From assembly GCF_053078305.1 (NCBI RefSeq), contig NZ_CP166879.1: a stretch of DNA of 64,000 nt; one strand, 5' to 3'. The notes beneath the pieces are model-generated. The model searched no databases. It saw nothing but the letters and a program-made list of their open reading frames with translations, and had not been told where the DNA came from. This document shows, piece by piece, positions 42,216 through 48,309 of this stretch. A program made the position numbers and the translations under genes. Positions within the stretch are counted from its first letter, which is position 1, and the number at the start of each line of letters is the position of its first letter.

Positions 42216-43292
42216 ATGAAATTGACGCTGAAAAACCTTAGCATGGCGATCATGATGAGCACTATAGTCATGGGAAGCAGTGCAATGGCGGCGGACAGCA
42301 ACGAAAAAATAGTCATCGCCCATCGCGGTGCCAGTGGATATTTGCCGGAGCATACGCTGCCAGCAAAAGCGATGGCGTATGCGCAGGGAGCGGATTATCT
42401 GGAACAGGATTTGGTGATGACCAAAGACGACCATCTGGTTGTTCTGCATGACCATTACCTCGATCGTGTTACTGATGTTGCCGATCGTTTCCCGGATCGG
42501 GCGCGCAAAGACGGTCGTTACTACGCGATAGATTTCACGCTGGATGAAATTAAGTCGTTGAAATTTACCGAAGGTTTCGATATTGAAAACGGTAAAAAAG
42601 TGCAGACTTATCCAGGGCGTTTCCCAATGGGTAAGTCCGACTTCCGGGTGCACACATTTGAAGAAGAGATTGAATTTGTTCAGGGGTTAAATCACTCTAC
42701 CGGGAAAAATATCGGTATCTATCCAGAAATCAAAGCGCCGTGGTTCCATCATCAGGAAGGGAAGGATATTGCGGCAAAAACGCTGGAAGTGCTGAAGAAA
42801 TATGGTTACACCGGTAAAGACGATAAAGTTTATTTGCAATGTTTTGATGCTGATGAGCTGAAGCGTATTAAGAATGAGCTGGAACCCAAAATGGGCATGG
42901 ATCTCAATCTGGTACAGCTGATTGCCTATACCGACTGGAATGAAACGCAGCAGAAACAGCCGGACGGAAGCTGGGTTAATTACAACTACGACTGGATGTT
43001 TAAGCCGGGTGCCATGAAACAGGTGGCGGAATATGCAGATGGTATTGGTCCGGATTACCATATGTTGATTGAGGAGACATCGCAGCCGGGTAATATCAAA
43101 CTCACTGGCATGGTGCAAGATGCTCAGCAGAACAAGCTGGTAGTGCATCCTTATACCGTGCGGTCAGATAAACTGCCTGAATACACAACTGATGTGAATC
43201 AGTTATATGATGCTCTGTATAACAAAGCGGGTGTAAATGGGTTGTTTACTGATTTCCCTGATAAAGCGGTTAAATTCCTTAATAAAGAGTAA
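42216..43292 (+). CDS. glpQ: periplasmic glycerophosphodiester phosphodiesterase
   Basis: 358 aa from MKLTLKNLSMAIMMSTIVMGSSAMA signal peptide; GDPD motif IVIAHRGASGYLPEHT. Confidence 0.93.
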   Translation: MKLTLKNLSMAIMMSTIVMGSSAMAADSNEKIVIAHRGASGYLPEHTLPAKAMAYAQGADYLEQDLVMTKDDHLVVLHDHYLDRVTDVADRFPDRARKDGRYYAIDFTLDEIKSLKFTEGFDIENGKKVQTYPGRFPMGKSDFRVHTFEEEIEFVQGLNHSTGKNIGIYPEIKAPWFHHQEGKDIAAKTLEVLKKYGYTGKDDKVYLQCFDADELKRIKNELEPKMGMDLNLVQLIAYTDWNETQQKQPDGSWVNYNYDWMFKPGAMKQVAEYADGIGPDYHMLIEETSQPGNIKLTGMVQDAQQNKLVVHPYTVRSDKLPEYTTDVNQLYDALYNKAGVNGLFTDFPDKAVKFLNKE

Positions 43293-43301
43293 TGCTGCTA
43301 C

Positions 43302-43332
43302 TGCAGGATGGCGTTCATGCGCCATCCTCTGC
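43302..43332 (+). terminator. hairpin downstream of glpQ
   Basis: ggatggcgc atgaacgc gccatcc inverted repeat; weak T-run. Confidence 0.45.
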
Positions 43333-43515
43333 TAAAGCGAAATAATGCTACTACCGGTTATTCTTTTCATTAACCGGTGCGTCCTGTAAAAAAGATGCCA
43401 ACATAATTTTCGTAAAACTCATTCGTTAAAAAAGCTAACACTGGGCATTGTTATTCTTTAAACAGTATGAATAGGTCTCAATAATAAATTGTAATGCAGT
43501 TTATACTGTAAAGTA

Positions 43516-44622
43516 TTATTCTAATTTCGGAAAGGTAAAGAAAATATTAATGTATCTTATTAATTTATCATATTGTTCTTGGGTGAATGCTGTTTGCACA
43601 CCTTCAGGGCAATATTTACCAGTAATAACCAGTTGCCCATTGCTGTGTTGTACCATTAAACCTTCTTTTTCCTTTGGATCTACAAACTTAGAATTATCAA
43701 ATGTGAAGATATTTTTTTCCTGTTTTGAGTAAGCAAAGAAATCTCGTGTATAGCTGAAACTATCATTTATTAATGGTGCTAACTTTTTGTCGGTGATATC
43801 GATAAGCTCACCACTTAATTTATTGATGTATTTCATTTGGTTCAATTTTTTCTGCGCTTGTACAATTTGCTTGTAGGTATTTTTAATTTCCTTAGAAGAA
43901 TTCTTGAATTTATCATAGCGTTCCTCGGAGGATGCGTATTTGTACCATTCTGTATTTTTTCTCAGAATGTAGTAGCAGGTCTGTATATTTTTTTGATCGC
44001 TGTAAAGTTGACTTTTAATACTTTCCTTACTGCTGGTTTTATAAGGTTTATCAGAGCTGTTTATTTTTGAAATGTCTTTTTCTGTCGGTGACTGGACCGT
44101 GTTGTGGATATTTTCTTTTATAACATGTTCATTGATGATGTTAATTGCAGTTTCATATTCATTTAAGTTTATTGTTCTTTGTGAAATAAACCCTTCTTTG
44201 CTTTCGACACTCAAAATACCTTCGTTGTTTTCACCTCGGGTAAAGGTAAGGGTATAGGGTTCATAATCCGCTGCAAATTCATTTTTATACGTTATGACAT
44301 GTTCGACAAAATGTCTTATTGGTACGAAACCATAACTGTGAACGTCAATTTTTTGGGTCTTGATACTATCAATTGCATCTGAGGCTTTCGTGAAAAAAGC
44401 CAATAAATTAGCTATGCTGTCTGTTGAGGTTGATAACCCGTATCTACTTTGAGATATTTTTAGAAACTCATCGCAAAAAAACTCAAGTTTGGCGGTTTGT
44501 TGTGATTCTTTGTAAATTTCTGCTGGTTGCAATTTATTATTTTGTAAAATATTATAGCGAGATAAGTGAATAGATGTATCTGGCATAAATGATTCCTTGT
44601 ATTGTGAGTTAACAAGATACAA
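43516..44622 (-). CDS. hypothetical protein, 368 aa, strongly low-GC, no recognisable domain
   Basis: Long uninterrupted ORF in DNA of roughly one-third GC by eye; Lys/Asn/Ser/Tyr-rich, no signal peptide or TM segment; absent from my recollection of the K-12 glpQ-inaA interval. Confidence 0.55.
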   Translation of the reverse strand: MYLVNSQYKESFMPDTSIHLSRYNILQNNKLQPAEIYKESQQTAKLEFFCDEFLKISQSRYGLSTSTDSIANLLAFFTKASDAIDSIKTQKIDVHSYGFVPIRHFVEHVITYKNEFAADYEPYTLTFTRGENNEGILSVESKEGFISQRTINLNEYETAINIINEHVIKENIHNTVQSPTEKDISKINSSDKPYKTSSKESIKSQLYSDQKNIQTCYYILRKNTEWYKYASSEERYDKFKNSSKEIKNTYKQIVQAQKKLNQMKYINKLSGELIDITDKKLAPLINDSFSYTRDFFAYSKQEKNIFTFDNSKFVDPKEKEGLMVQHSNGQLVITGKYCPEGVQTAFTQEQYDKLIRYINIFFTFPKLE

Positions 44623-45049
44623 TTTAATCTTTGCAGAATATATTCACTATCAAATTTAGCTCATTTTATTACGAAGACCTTTACGCATGTTAGAAAGTAT
44701 CATTATTGTTAATAAATACGGTAATAAGTAACAAACAGATATTGATAGCTTCCCTGACAAGTTATTAGGTATCCCACTTGAAGATTGAGAATGGCTCCAG
44801 AGTAAACTGTGTACTGTTCGCCGGAGTGTCATTACTCTCAACAATCGGATTTGACAGTGAGTCGGGCGCTTCATACCGGTTTCTACCTGGAGTCATTGTC
44901 ACTTCTCCCAACTGGATAAATATATCGCCAATTCACAAAGTGGGCCAAAATCAGGTGAAAACGAATTATTACGCCTGGTAAAGGCTATAGTACAACTAAG
45001 TGTGGCGAATCAGGCAGTCTTGCATTTGTCATCAATCTCATGTCTTACA

Positions 45050-45928
45050 TCAAATTTTTCCACTCACCACTAGTTGTTCCGTACACATTTGTAGTAAAAA
45101 CAGTGGACTGCCTTCTACCGGCTTTTCTTTAGCCAGCAACGAAATCTGTCGATAGAAGGTTGGTTCGAGAGGAACGGAACACAATTCATCTGCAATGGTT
45201 TTCAGCGTTAACTCTGGTAATAAGGCGATGCCTAATCCCTGTCGAATAAAACTGATCGCTGTATCCGGGTGATTAAATTCATATTTTATCTGTGGGGTAA
45301 TATTCTTTTCTTTAAATAGTGCCATAATGCTTAATTCATAGCGTCCTTTACTAATGATTAATGGTTCACCCATTAATTCTTCCACTGTAATAGTGCTGTT
45401 TTTTGCCAGAGCATGGTTGGGCGGTAACACTACGGTGAATTTATCCTGATAAATGGGCACGGAGTACATTCCGCTCACCGGAAAATGAACAAAACCGGCA
45501 TCAATGGATTCATTCTGAAGCGAATCAATAATCGCTGTGCTATTTTCCTCAAAAGGAATAATTTTTATATTCGGATGATGAATTTCAAAGTAGCGAATCA
45601 CAACCGGTAAGATACAGGCGCAGACGCTGGGGAAACAACCAAGTCTCAGCGTTCTTTGAGGGTTCTGCTTTTCCTGCTCGGCTATCTCTTTTACTGCGTT
45701 AACTTCCCGATTAATGGCGCGCAGATGTTGCACAATGCGATGACCTGCTGTGGTCAGTTGTATAGCTTTACGGCGATCGCGTAACAGTATATTCACACCA
45801 AGTTCTTGTTCGAGGGCAGCAATTGCCTGACTTACCGCCGACTGCGTCATGAACAATCGCTTGCTGGCTTCAGTAAAGCCACCGTAATCCAGCACGGCGA
45901 GTAAAGAATTTATTTGGGTAAGAGTCAT
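45050..45928 (-). CDS. yfaH: LysR-family transcriptional regulator (intact counterpart of K-12 yfaH pseudogene)
   Basis: 292 aa; N-terminal LysR HTH MTLTQINSLLAVLDYGGFTEASKRLFMTQSAVSQAIAALEQELG; divergent from an MFS transporter gene. Confidence 0.75.
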   Translation of the reverse strand: MTLTQINSLLAVLDYGGFTEASKRLFMTQSAVSQAIAALEQELGVNILLRDRRKAIQLTTAGHRIVQHLRAINREVNAVKEIAEQEKQNPQRTLRLGCFPSVCACILPVVIRYFEIHHPNIKIIPFEENSTAIIDSLQNESIDAGFVHFPVSGMYSVPIYQDKFTVVLPPNHALAKNSTITVEELMGEPLIISKGRYELSIMALFKEKNITPQIKYEFNHPDTAISFIRQGLGIALLPELTLKTIADELCSVPLEPTFYRQISLLAKEKPVEGSPLFLLQMCTEQLVVSGKI

Positions 45929-46079
45929 TAGAGTTTGCTAATCAATAATATTAAAACGATTAATTTCTCTAATAGCATGCCGCCATTTATACTTCTGTTC
46001 TGCAAAGTACATCACAATTTGACGCAACCGCAGTAACGGGAGTGTTGTCTGCGTGCGTCATCCTGACAGGCGGTAGGGT

Positions 46080-47270
46080 ATGAAAGAGAAGTTATGGACG
46101 AAAGATTTTTGGGCAATCACCATTATTAGCTTTATTATCTTTTTCGTCTTTTATGTGTTGCTGACCTTATTACCTATTTATATCTCCGATCGTCTCCATG
46201 CATCCCCTGATAAAGCTGGTCTGCTGGTGACATTATTTTTAATTGCGGCGATTGTTATTCGACCCTTTGCCGGGCAATGGGTGGGTAAATATTCGAATAA
46301 AACTATTCTGGTGCTCTCTTCTCTGGCCTTTTTGGTGGTCACTGCGCTGTATCCTTTTTGCCACTCAATAGAATCACTGCTTTTTATTAGGGTGCTTCAT
46401 GGTATTACCTTCGGGGTTATCACAACGGTAAAGGGAACGATTTCCGCGCGGCTGATCCCGGCCTCCCGACGTGGGGAGGGCATCAGTTTTTTCTCTCTGG
46501 CAATGGGGCTGGCAATGGTGGTCGGGCCGTGGATTGGCCTGAATATGGCGCGCTGGGAGGCCTTTAATATGGCTTTCTGGTTATGTACTGGCGTTGCGGC
46601 GGTGGGGATTATCCTGTCGCTGATTATGACCGTGCCGCCGGTTATCAGCCATGCCGACGGTTCAAAGCCAAAGATGGGCTTCGCCGCCATGTTCGATCGC
46701 GCGGCGTTGCCATTTGCGATGGTCACCTTTTTTATGACCTTTTCGTATGCCGGGGTTTCTGCTTTTCTGGCGCTTTATGCTCGCGAACTTAACCTGATGT
46801 CGGCGGCCAGTAATTTCCTGCTTTGCTACGCCATCTTCCTGATGATCTGCCGTACCTTTACCGGCAATGTCTGCGACAAAAAAGGACCGAAATATGTGGT
46901 TTACCCTTGCCTTGTGTTCTTTACGGTAGGACTGGTGGTTCTCGGCTACACCCAGGGAAGCATAATGATGGTTGTTTCTGGCGCGTTGATTGGTATCGGG
47001 TATGGTTCCGTGACGCCAGTTTTTCAGACGCAGATTATCAGTTCAGTGGAACCCCATAAAATTGGTGTCGCAAACTCCCTCTTCTTCAATGCGATGGATG
47101 CAGGCCTGGCGCTGGGAGCCTGTGTGATGGGGATGATGGTTGCACATACTGGCTACCGAATGATTTATCTGCTGGGCGCACTATTAGTGGTAGTGGCTGG
47201 TGGAGTCTATGCGCTGCAAATGAAGGGTAAAAGCGGTGTCGTGCTAGTAGTGGCAAAAGAAATTCATTAA
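46080..47270 (+). CDS. MFS-type transporter (12 TM), substrate unknown
   Basis: 396-aa hydrophobic ORF with MFS signature GQWVGKYSNK-type loop; divergently paired with the LysR regulator. Confidence 0.75.
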   Translation: MKEKLWTKDFWAITIISFIIFFVFYVLLTLLPIYISDRLHASPDKAGLLVTLFLIAAIVIRPFAGQWVGKYSNKTILVLSSLAFLVVTALYPFCHSIESLLFIRVLHGITFGVITTVKGTISARLIPASRRGEGISFFSLAMGLAMVVGPWIGLNMARWEAFNMAFWLCTGVAAVGIILSLIMTVPPVISHADGSKPKMGFAAMFDRAALPFAMVTFFMTFSYAGVSAFLALYARELNLMSAASNFLLCYAIFLMICRTFTGNVCDKKGPKYVVYPCLVFFTVGLVVLGYTQGSIMMVVSGALIGIGYGSVTPVFQTQIISSVEPHKIGVANSLFFNAMDAGLALGACVMGMMVAHTGYRMIYLLGALLVVVAGGVYALQMKGKSGVVLVVAKEIH

Positions 47271-47350
47271 TACGACACGTTTCATTAAGATTTTTCGCAG
47301 GTAACCACCTATAGTCATTGTCGTTAATAAAAAATGACAGGCGATAGGGT

Positions 47351-48001
47351 ATGGCAGTTTCAGCAAAGCACGACGAATTTAATCACTGGTGGGCAACAGA
47401 GGGCGACTGGGTTGAAGAGCCTAACTATCGCCGTAATGGTATGAGCGGGGTGCAATGCGTCGAGCGCAACGGCAAAAAGCTATATGTAAAGCGCATGACG
47501 CATCATCTGTTTCATTCCGTACGTTATCCTTTCGGCCGACCAACGATTGTCCGTGAGGTTGCGGTAATTAAAGAACTGGAACGGGCCGGTGTCATCGTGC
47601 CGAAGATCGTTTTTGGTGAAGCGGTGAAAATTGAGGGTGAATGGCGAGCGTTGCTGGTGACTGAAGATATGGCGGGGTTCATCAGCATTGCTGACTGGTA
47701 TGCCCAGCATGCAGTATCGCCTTATTCTGACGAAGTACGGCAAGCCATGTTGAAAGCAGTGGCGCTGGCGTTTAAGAAAATGCATAGCATTAATCGTCAG
47801 CATGGCTGTTGTTATGTTCGCCATATCTATGTGAAAACAGAAGGTAAGGCAGAAGCTGGTTTTCTTGACCTGGAGAAAAGTCGTCGCCGCTTGCGTCGCC
47901 ATAAAGCGATCAATCATGACTTCCGCCAGCTGGAAAAATATCTGGAGCCAATTCCCAAAGCGGACTGGGAGCAGGTAAAAGCGTATTACTACGCCATGTA
48001 A
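47351..48001 (+). CDS. inaA: acid-inducible Kdo/WaaP-family kinase-like protein InaA
   Basis: 216-aa ORF MAVSAKHDEFNHWWATEGDWVEEPNYRRNGMSGVQ... Confidence 0.88.
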   Translation: MAVSAKHDEFNHWWATEGDWVEEPNYRRNGMSGVQCVERNGKKLYVKRMTHHLFHSVRYPFGRPTIVREVAVIKELERAGVIVPKIVFGEAVKIEGEWRALLVTEDMAGFISIADWYAQHAVSPYSDEVRQAMLKAVALAFKKMHSINRQHGCCYVRHIYVKTEGKAEAGFLDLEKSRRRLRRHKAINHDFRQLEKYLEPIPKADWEQVKAYYYAM

Positions 48002-48054: not shown

Positions 48055-48309
48055 TCACATCTCGATTTCAATATCGCCTTTTGCCCGGCAACAACAGGGC
48101 AAAATTTCCCCCGGCTGAATAAAGGCTAACGGTTCGGCAATCCAGTCCACCTGACCTGCGACCAGTCGGGTGCGACAGGAGCCGCAGTAACCTTCGCGGC
48201 ACTGGTACTCAACCGCCACATTGTGGGATTCCAGCGCCGCCAGAAGGGAAGGGTGTTCATCCTGGCACAGCAGTTGTGTGCCAGTGATGCGCAGGGTAAC
48301 GCGAGCCAT
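48055..48309 (-). CDS. yfaE: 2Fe-2S ferredoxin YfaE (NrdB diferric-tyrosyl radical maintenance)
   Basis: 84 aa with Cys ligands (CREGYCGSCRTRL ... CCC); immediately downstream of nrdB. Confidence 0.9.
   Translation of the reverse strand: MARVTLRITGTQLLCQDEHPSLLAALESHNVAVEYQCREGYCGSCRTRLVAGQVDWIAEPLAFIQPGEILPCCCRAKGDIEIEM

Follow-up and report, generated by a model that had tools for sequence, protein, structure and literature searches.

Divergently transcribed pairs of a LysR-type transcriptional regulator (LTTR) and a single major facilitator superfamily (MFS) transporter are known in Escherichia coli from PunR/PunC (ydhB/ydhC) and YnfL/YnfM. The closest described relative of the locus analyzed here is O-island 97 of E. 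coli O157:H7, which holds z3494 (MFS) and z3495 (LysR) in strain EDL933. In strain Sakai the corresponding genes are annotated as ECs3121 ('antibiotic efflux protein') and ECs3122 ('yfaH, transcriptional regulator'), followed by the hypothetical gene ECs3123. We compared these systems with the interval between glpQ and inaA in a stretch of 64,000 nucleotides (contig NZ_CP166879.1 of assembly GCF_053078305.1; hereafter the window), which contains the same regulator–transporter pair and the same third gene. The arrangement in the window is therefore already known from ECs3121–ECs3123 and z3494/z3495, and published knockout primers match the window sequence (PMC10819331). Deletion of z3495 lowers the transcripts of the enterocyte effacement locus (LEE), adherence and mouse colonization, and the Z3495 protein shifts the rcsF promoter in an electrophoretic mobility shift assay (EMSA), while deletion of z3494 has no effect on LEE, adherence or colonization (Wang et al., 2024; PMC10819331). 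In the same work, the pair is read as acquired laterally and independently in different lineages (PMC10819331).

The interval covers positions 43293–47350 and measures 4,058 bp, since glpQ (glycerophosphodiester phosphodiesterase; 42216..43292, plus strand) ends at 43292 and inaA (47351..48001, plus strand) starts at 47351; both borders are supported by the list of open reading frames (ORFs) and by the RefSeq annotation of matching records. It contains three ORFs, namely an orphan gene (43516..44586, minus strand), a full-length regulator (45050..45928, minus strand, 292 aa) and a transporter (46080..47270, plus strand, 396 aa). An initial annotation of this DNA had listed the regulator, the divergent transporter and the third frame with coordinates that proved exact. 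It had also placed the window in a non-K-12 lineage, which agrees with the best DNA match, strain PapM-32-1 at 99.5%, and with the match to O157:H7 at 98.7% over 4.8 kb. The short yfaH remnant that it placed between glpQ and inaA in K-12 is the state found in MG1655, and alignment with MG1655 and other E. coli, the check that it had proposed, gives a different gene content for K-12 at this junction. From the comparison described below, the interval very probably combines two unrelated histories: an ancestral LysR/MFS module that has been lost from most E. coli, and an insertion that carries the orphan gene.

Ancestry of the pair and its loss in K-12

The gene order is glpQ–LysR–MFS–yfaE–nrdB in Salmonella and glpA–LysR–MFS–yfaE–nrdB in Klebsiella, so the pair stands at the same place in other genera. 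The proteins encoded at this site in Salmonella and Klebsiella are 80 and 70% identical to the window regulator and 86 and 86% identical to the window transporter, and the transporter orthologues of Salmonella, Klebsiella and Kluyvera span 84–86%. Between the window and Salmonella, the proportion of synonymous sites that differ (pS) is 0.66–0.76 for the pair and 0.49–0.63 for the flanking core genes, which places the pair in or just above the core range.

In K-12 MG1655 the distance from glpQ to inaA is 462 bp, made up of a 243-bp LysR C-terminal fragment (yfaH), a 105-bp MFS C-terminal fragment and their surroundings. The window regulator is the intact form of this yfaH pseudogene (b2238), which corresponds to the C-terminal 68–80 codons of the regulator with DNA that is 92.7% identical over 260 bp. 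Consistently, the NCBIfam YfaH model, PRK09729, matches residues 226–292 of the window regulator (4.1e-43). In K-12 the spacer is missing, together with about 210 N-terminal codons of the regulator and 362 of the transporter codons. BLAST breakpoints and junction sequences place the segment missing from K-12-type genomes at 45293..47171, a length of 1,879 bp that is given by the difference between the interval of strain EC11 (L002; 2,341 bp) and that of K-12 (462 bp). Copies of TTTATCTG at 45285–45292 and 47164–47171 bound the deletion, forming an 8-bp microhomology. The K-12-type loss arose as one 1,879-bp deletion between these TTTATCTG copies, leaving the yfaH stub and the 105-bp transporter stub.

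The synteny, the core-like divergence and the K-12 stubs therefore identify the pair as ancestral and K-12 as the deleted state. As judged from sequence comparison, the LysR/MFS pair is shown to be an ancestral, vertically inherited enterobacterial module that most E. coli appear to have lost. The synteny, the divergence and the K-12 remnants also contradict the lateral acquisition proposed for O-island 97 (PMC10819331). The initial annotation had suggested that K-12 carries a deletion in this interval. This holds for the LysR/MFS pair, both edges of which survive at the 8-bp microhomology junction, but does not extend to the third gene, which came with a separate insertion. Where the pair is retained, purifying selection on both genes is strong; among the E. 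coli comparisons that could be measured, the ratio of nonsynonymous to synonymous divergence (dN/dS) is 0.05–0.18 for the regulator and approximately 0.03–0.09 for the transporter. Many independent lesions of the module were also seen, among them insertions of the insertion sequences (IS) IS1 and IS5, an internal stop codon and other deletions. The module looks dispensable in E. coli.

The states of the locus were counted in 5,426 complete E. coli genomes. The regulator–transporter segment is present in 1,217 genomes, about 100 of them with a divergent allele; the K-12-type deletion junction occurs in 3,132, and an emptied state, in which about 100 bp of unrelated DNA replaces the whole interval, in 1,058. 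These three states together account for 5,407 genomes. The AT-rich insertion with the orphan gene is found in 1,052 genomes, always in the chromosome, and the full window arrangement in 710. Subtracting these counts leaves about 340 genomes that have both the AT-rich segment and the K-12-type deletion, such as L010, L011 and L013, and about 500, such as EC11, in which the pair is kept without the AT-rich segment. This clean multi-state polymorphism of the glpQ–inaA locus could serve as a lineage marker.

Some loci depart from these states or add to them. In the emptied state, exemplified by strain HS13-1 (L003 1894–1996), the terminator hairpin of glpQ has diverged as well; remnants of the pair were sought in the emptied spacer by BLAST against the E. 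coli, Salmonella and Klebsiella loci, which returned only chance matches of 9–14 nt. In GDSC2227PM (NZ_CP135595.1, ~1549505–1551056), all that remains is 388 bp from the start of the insertion and 397 bp from the end of the pair segment, with 767 bp between them, and this locus is a further independent loss. IS1 is about 768 bp long, and the enclosed gap is about IS1-sized. In MFDS1022581 (L014 1056–3467), glpQ is split by IS2 beside the orphan gene and the K-12-type deletion. On the other side of the pair, yfaE follows the transporter gene in Salmonella (L005) and Klebsiella (L006/L007) with no inaA in between, and inaA therefore looks like an Escherichia-side addition at this site.

The AT-rich insertion and its orphan gene

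Junctions mapped against EC11 (L002) and K-12 (L001) delimit an AT-rich insertion of 1,713 bp with 33.7% GC (43329..45041), which carries the orphan gene. It starts 1 bp after a terminator-like hairpin of glpQ, read from the sequence as GGATGGCG-N6-CGCCATCC (43306..43327, plus strand), and ends 8 bp before the stop codon of the regulator gene. The composition follows these borders, with 31–35% GC across 43250–45000 and 41–53% over the regulator and the transporter. In insertion-free strains the two flanks abut exactly, both in K-12 and in EC11, where the pair is kept; the glpQ hairpin is present in both, and the 3′ end of the LysR gene directly follows it. The insertion and the K-12-type deletion are found in all four combinations. 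Since the insertion is absent from the pair-keeping EC11 and present in the deletion strains L010, L011 and L013, the two arose as separate events. The third gene, 368 aa in its longest form, lies outside the segment deleted from K-12, and K-12 never had the insertion.

The insertion does not resemble a mobile element: it has a single long ORF without a family, is single-copy and does not change its site among the carrier loci examined. A repeat scan of its ends at 43329 and 45041 revealed neither terminal inverted repeats nor a target duplication, the insertion contains no integrase and no IS, and no copies of the insertion or the orphan gene were found on plasmids or phages. The single match labeled as a plasmid is a 4.9-Mb record, that is, a mislabeled chromosome. 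Alleles of the insertion with 80–83% identity stand at the same site too, including that of the cryptic-clade strain TW10509. At the left end of the insertion, 25 nt (43333–43357) resemble the 3′ end of glpQ and the bases after it (43283–43307) at 76%, and are closer to the 'CTACCGG' version found in the emptied state; this resemblance may reflect the donor context or may be due to chance.

The orphan gene encodes 356 aa from the ATG used by RefSeq and Sakai, and its frame extends upstream to a TTG at 44622, giving 368 aa. It corresponds to ECs3123 in Sakai and, by numbering, to Z3496 in EDL933, where glpQ is Z3497; no literature was found under ECs3123 or Z3496. The protein gave no match in Pfam or NCBIfam, and none to a PHROG or PADLOC profile at E up to 1. 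Two large protein sets, one of 5.8 billion proteins searched by word index and one of 1.84 billion representatives searched exhaustively with HMMER, yielded alleles and fragments from Escherichia and no convincing relative outside this genus. Three additional weak HMMER matches were set aside. The first, P0154, is a fragment of 161 aa with 42% identity (E 1.9e-5), which we take for a copy of the orphan gene that has diverged or decayed; the other two, P0155 and P0156, are proteins of great length and repetitive sequence (E ~1e-4) whose matches are most likely driven by composition. The AlphaFold2 model, built on a 15-sequence alignment, is unreliable, with a predicted local distance difference test (pLDDT) score of 40 and a predicted template modeling (pTM) score of 0.24. 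A 72-aa ORF lies upstream of the gene (44656–44874), with a 2-nt indel among alleles.

The alleles of the orphan gene differ by up to 20% in protein and reach a synonymous divergence (dS) of 0.13, and every allele examined stands at the same site. This divergence at a fixed site argues for long residence rather than recent mobility. The window and O157 allele also contains a compensated double frameshift (43960..43994, minus strand), visible in a nucleotide alignment of seven alleles as a single-nucleotide gap (column 593) followed by a single-nucleotide insertion (column 628). Between these two positions 12 codons are read out of frame, and the window and O157 allele has NIQTCYYILR where the other alleles have KYTDLLLHSE. 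Further alleles are broken outright, by a true frameshift in L010 and by an IS1 insertion in L008.

On these data, the orphan is probably a real, translated but weakly constrained gene restricted to Escherichia. A competing explanation is that the 356-codon frame has no function and is decaying, or never worked, in acquired and probably silenced AT-rich DNA, and we consider this possible though doubtful. A dN/dS of 0.5–0.7, the toleration of an out-of-frame stretch, the frequent pseudogenes and the pLDDT of 40 all fit a gene that does little, as do the missing homologs, domains and literature, and these points weigh against a functional protein. Against them stands the length of the frame. At 32% GC, stops make up about 7.6% of random codons, and by a base-composition calculation 356 open codons would arise by chance with a probability of ~5e-13. 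Of the six other alleles in the comparison, five have kept the frame open while diverging by up to 7% in nucleotides, and the window allele compensates its two frameshifts instead of leaving them open. In addition, 13 of the 14 computable allele pairs have a dN/dS below 1, and the amino-acid changes cluster in the middle third of the protein while both ends are nearly invariant.

The regulator, the divergent spacer and the transporter

The regulator has the features that define an LTTR, with an N-terminal winged helix-turn-helix (Pfam HTH_1, residues 3–63, 1.4e-17), a LysR_substrate domain (residues 88–267, 5.7e-36) and a T-N11-A dyad in the divergent promoter region. It matches the structures of CysB, BenM and OxyR over the full length. 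Two variants of the protein were seen. In EC11 (L002 1913–2812) the regulator is extended by seven residues to 299 aa through a 1-nt change in the length of a T-run just before the stop codon (window 45050–45060), and the extended frame continues into the glpQ terminator hairpin. In O145 strain RM9467 (L009 1441–2319) and about 100 other genomes, the regulator allele is 84% identical in amino acids with saturated synonymous sites, and adjoins a transporter that is 98% identical; this regulator allele looks as if it was imported from a distant relative.

The two genes are separated by a spacer of 151 bp (45929..46079), the place where the initial annotation had proposed to look for a LysR box. 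A candidate canonical box is indeed present, the dyad ATTAAAACGATTAAT at 45950..45964 (ATTAA-N5-TTAAT, a T-N11-A arrangement), 22 bp upstream of the ATG of the regulator and 116 bp upstream of that of the transporter. The 64-kb window has a single copy of the dyad where 0.08 would be expected by chance, and the dyad is likewise found once, in the spacer, in every intact-pair locus retrieved from E. coli, Salmonella and Klebsiella, where it is nearly invariant and lies within the best-conserved block of the spacer alignment. It is part of a run of (A/C)TAAT and ATTA(A/G) half-sites with approximately 10-bp spacing (45927..45973), seen both in the sequence and in the conserved columns. The half-sites fall at 45927, 45938, 45950, 45960 and 45969, and a dyad with one mismatch at 45959–45973. 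From its spacing and conservation, the run may be a candidate for an extended footprint of the regulator.

The simplest model for the pair would be a standard LysR circuit. A tetramer of the regulator would sit in the spacer, bound to the ATTAA-N5-TTAAT dyad and to the half-sites on its flanks, and in this position would repress its own gene. With a small-molecule ligand, the regulator would activate the transporter gene, and the transporter would most likely export the compound that serves as the ligand. The promoter of the neighboring transporter, with its conserved dyad, is an obvious candidate for the native target of the regulator. The initial annotation had described the two genes as a classic substrate-responsive module, and this description is supported by their divergent arrangement, by their being kept together from Klebsiella to E. 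coli and by the conserved T-N11-A dyad. It had left the substrate of the module undefined; the regulator, for its part, has already been published as Z3495 with a knockout, EMSA and chromatin immunoprecipitation sequencing (ChIP-seq) (PMC10819331).

The transporter belongs to the MFS by its MFS_1 fold and its two six-helix halves. Pfam MFS_1 covers residues 14–342 (1.2e-45) with a second-half match, and the hydropathy profile, with 11 peaks above 1.5 and one weaker peak near residues 330–350, fits 12 transmembrane segments. The best-scoring named families in NCBIfam over the full length are PRK05122 (YfcJ; 3.3e-32) and PRK12382 (YhhS; 3.4e-24). With 111.7 and 85.4 bits against curated cut-offs of 374 and 364, respectively, the transporter scores far too low for membership in either subfamily and is a distant relative; in the published work it is cited as CDD MFS_YfcJ_like (PMC10819331). 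The closest solved structure is NorA, matched at 6e-14 over the N-terminal half only. In the translation, the fifth transmembrane segment, GLAMVVGPWIGL, contains the GP core of antiporter motif C (G-x3-G-P-x2-G-G) with a partial match to the flanking glycines. Among named proteins, the transporter is nearest to YfcJ- and YhhS-like proteins, to CntE and to NorA, in each case with a score far below the family cut-offs. Export is favored because of these relatives, and with modest confidence we suggest that the transporter probably exports the compound sensed by the regulator. The substrate of the transporter and the ligand of the regulator are not predictable from sequence.

Several points weigh against the circuit as described. 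Export is a guess from the distant relatives NorA, CntE and YhhS for a protein that falls below every named NCBIfam subfamily cut-off. A promoter scan of the spacer gave no good sigma-70 promoter. The sole published output of the regulator is the activation of rcsF and LEE, and the transporter knockout had no phenotype (PMC10819331). These last results favor another explanation, in which the main job of the regulator is global or virulence control through rcsF, the Rcs phosphorelay and LEE, with no functional link to the transporter. We consider this explanation unlikely. Conservation of the pair and of its dyad extends to Salmonella and Klebsiella, which are not known to have LEE, so control of LEE would not be the ancestral function. 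Moreover, the ChIP-seq peaks of Z3495 (Table S4) have coordinates on the scale of K-12 (ompA 1,019,229; glpQ 2,351,168) and log2 enrichments of only 1.18–1.80, and mostly lie over highly expressed genes such as dnaJ, ompA, ompC, pflB and ptsH (PMC10819331). With K-12-scale coordinates, the spacer of O-island 97 could not have been scored, and we read the genome-wide targets as weak. A standard LysR circuit acting on the adjoining gene remains the reading that we prefer for the pair.

A broader proposal has two separate parts, one for the orphan gene and one for the regulator. In the first, the orphan would be a working protein with a new fold, born in Escherichia, with an accessory role, for example in host interaction or defense, and resident at its fixed site since before E. 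coli sensu stricto arose. In the second, the full-length YfaH would be an ancestral sensor of a metabolite or toxin, whose loss in most E. coli, K-12 included, may have altered Rcs and envelope regulation. We regard this proposal as distinctly unlikely.

Two observations concern the surroundings. Among RNA families, no credible match was found at 43000–47600, the sole match being a fly long non-coding RNA model at E 0.06. Beyond inaA, the mechanically called ORF of nrdB (48309–49670, minus strand) begins about 77 codons upstream of the annotated start and includes an arginine-rich repeated peptide (…LIRPTAR… twice). We take this extension to be a translation of repetitive extragenic palindromic (REP)-type intergenic repeats between nrdA and nrdB, and hence non-coding.

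Alternative histories and comparison with known systems

Two further alternatives concern the history of the pair. In the first, the emptied state of about 100 bp is the ancestral arrangement in Escherichia and the pair re-entered by recombination. The core of the emptied spacer, about 80 bp, has no detectable similarity to either gene of the pair, and the glpQ terminator differs in this state. However, the outgroup genera have the pair at this site, and the emptied allele rejoins the common sequence at the stop codon of the transporter, as expected for deletion or replacement of both genes. We therefore consider an originally empty site very unlikely. In the second, the pair is a lateral island gained independently by O157/O55 and some extraintestinal lineages, with K-12 as the original state (PMC10819331); the presence of the pair in only 22% of E. 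coli genomes and in two separate clades of the published tree (PMC10819331), the 42.8% GC of the regulator, which is below the E. coli average and alone could suggest a foreign origin, and the mosaic alleles, including the 84% regulator of about 100 genomes, which indicate that recombination moves DNA of this locus between lineages, would be compatible with such gains, but this reading is hardly credible, as it is already largely refuted by K-12, which keeps both truncated gene ends in the correct orientation with a microhomology join, the signature of a deletion and not of an empty site, and it also conflicts with the Salmonella and Klebsiella pairs beside yfaE–nrdB and with pair borders that have no mobility genes and no repeats.

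Under the preferred reading of an ancestral module and a separate insertion, O-island 97 is the ancestral pair, lost from K-12 and from about 78% of E. coli, and not a laterally acquired virulence island. The effects of Z3495 on LEE can then be read as those of an old regulator that was co-opted, or as indirect. To the published description, the present analysis adds the exact breakpoints, the frequencies of the locus states, the correction of the ancestry, the conserved LysR box and the separation of the orphan-gene insertion, which has no literature; a search for literature on STM2280/STM2281 and ECs3121–ECs3123 likewise found nothing. The practical value is small, and a specialist would not be surprised.

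Finally, we compared each part of the interval with the known systems that it resembles. The orphan gene resembles the lineage-restricted orphans of AT-rich enterobacterial islets in its GC of 32%, its occurrence as a single gene, its restriction to one genus, its weak constraint and its frequent pseudogenization. It differs from them in its fixed site, its long residence and the lack of mobility machinery. The pair has the same architecture as PunR/PunC and YnfL/YnfM, with a T-N11-A dyad in a short spacer; this likeness is one of architecture and serves as a lead. The closest agreement is with O-island 97, which has the same locus and the same gene order. The regulator is identical to Z3495 at 292 of 292 residues (100%) and the transporter to Z3494 at 393 of 396 (99.2%). 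At the DNA level, the non-O157 window differs from O157 (L004) by a dS of 0.18 in the transporter and 0.005 in the regulator, which shows that the locus is a mosaic and implies a recombination breakpoint near the spacer. The transporter gene of the window is closer to the O145 allele (dS 0.09) than to that of O157.

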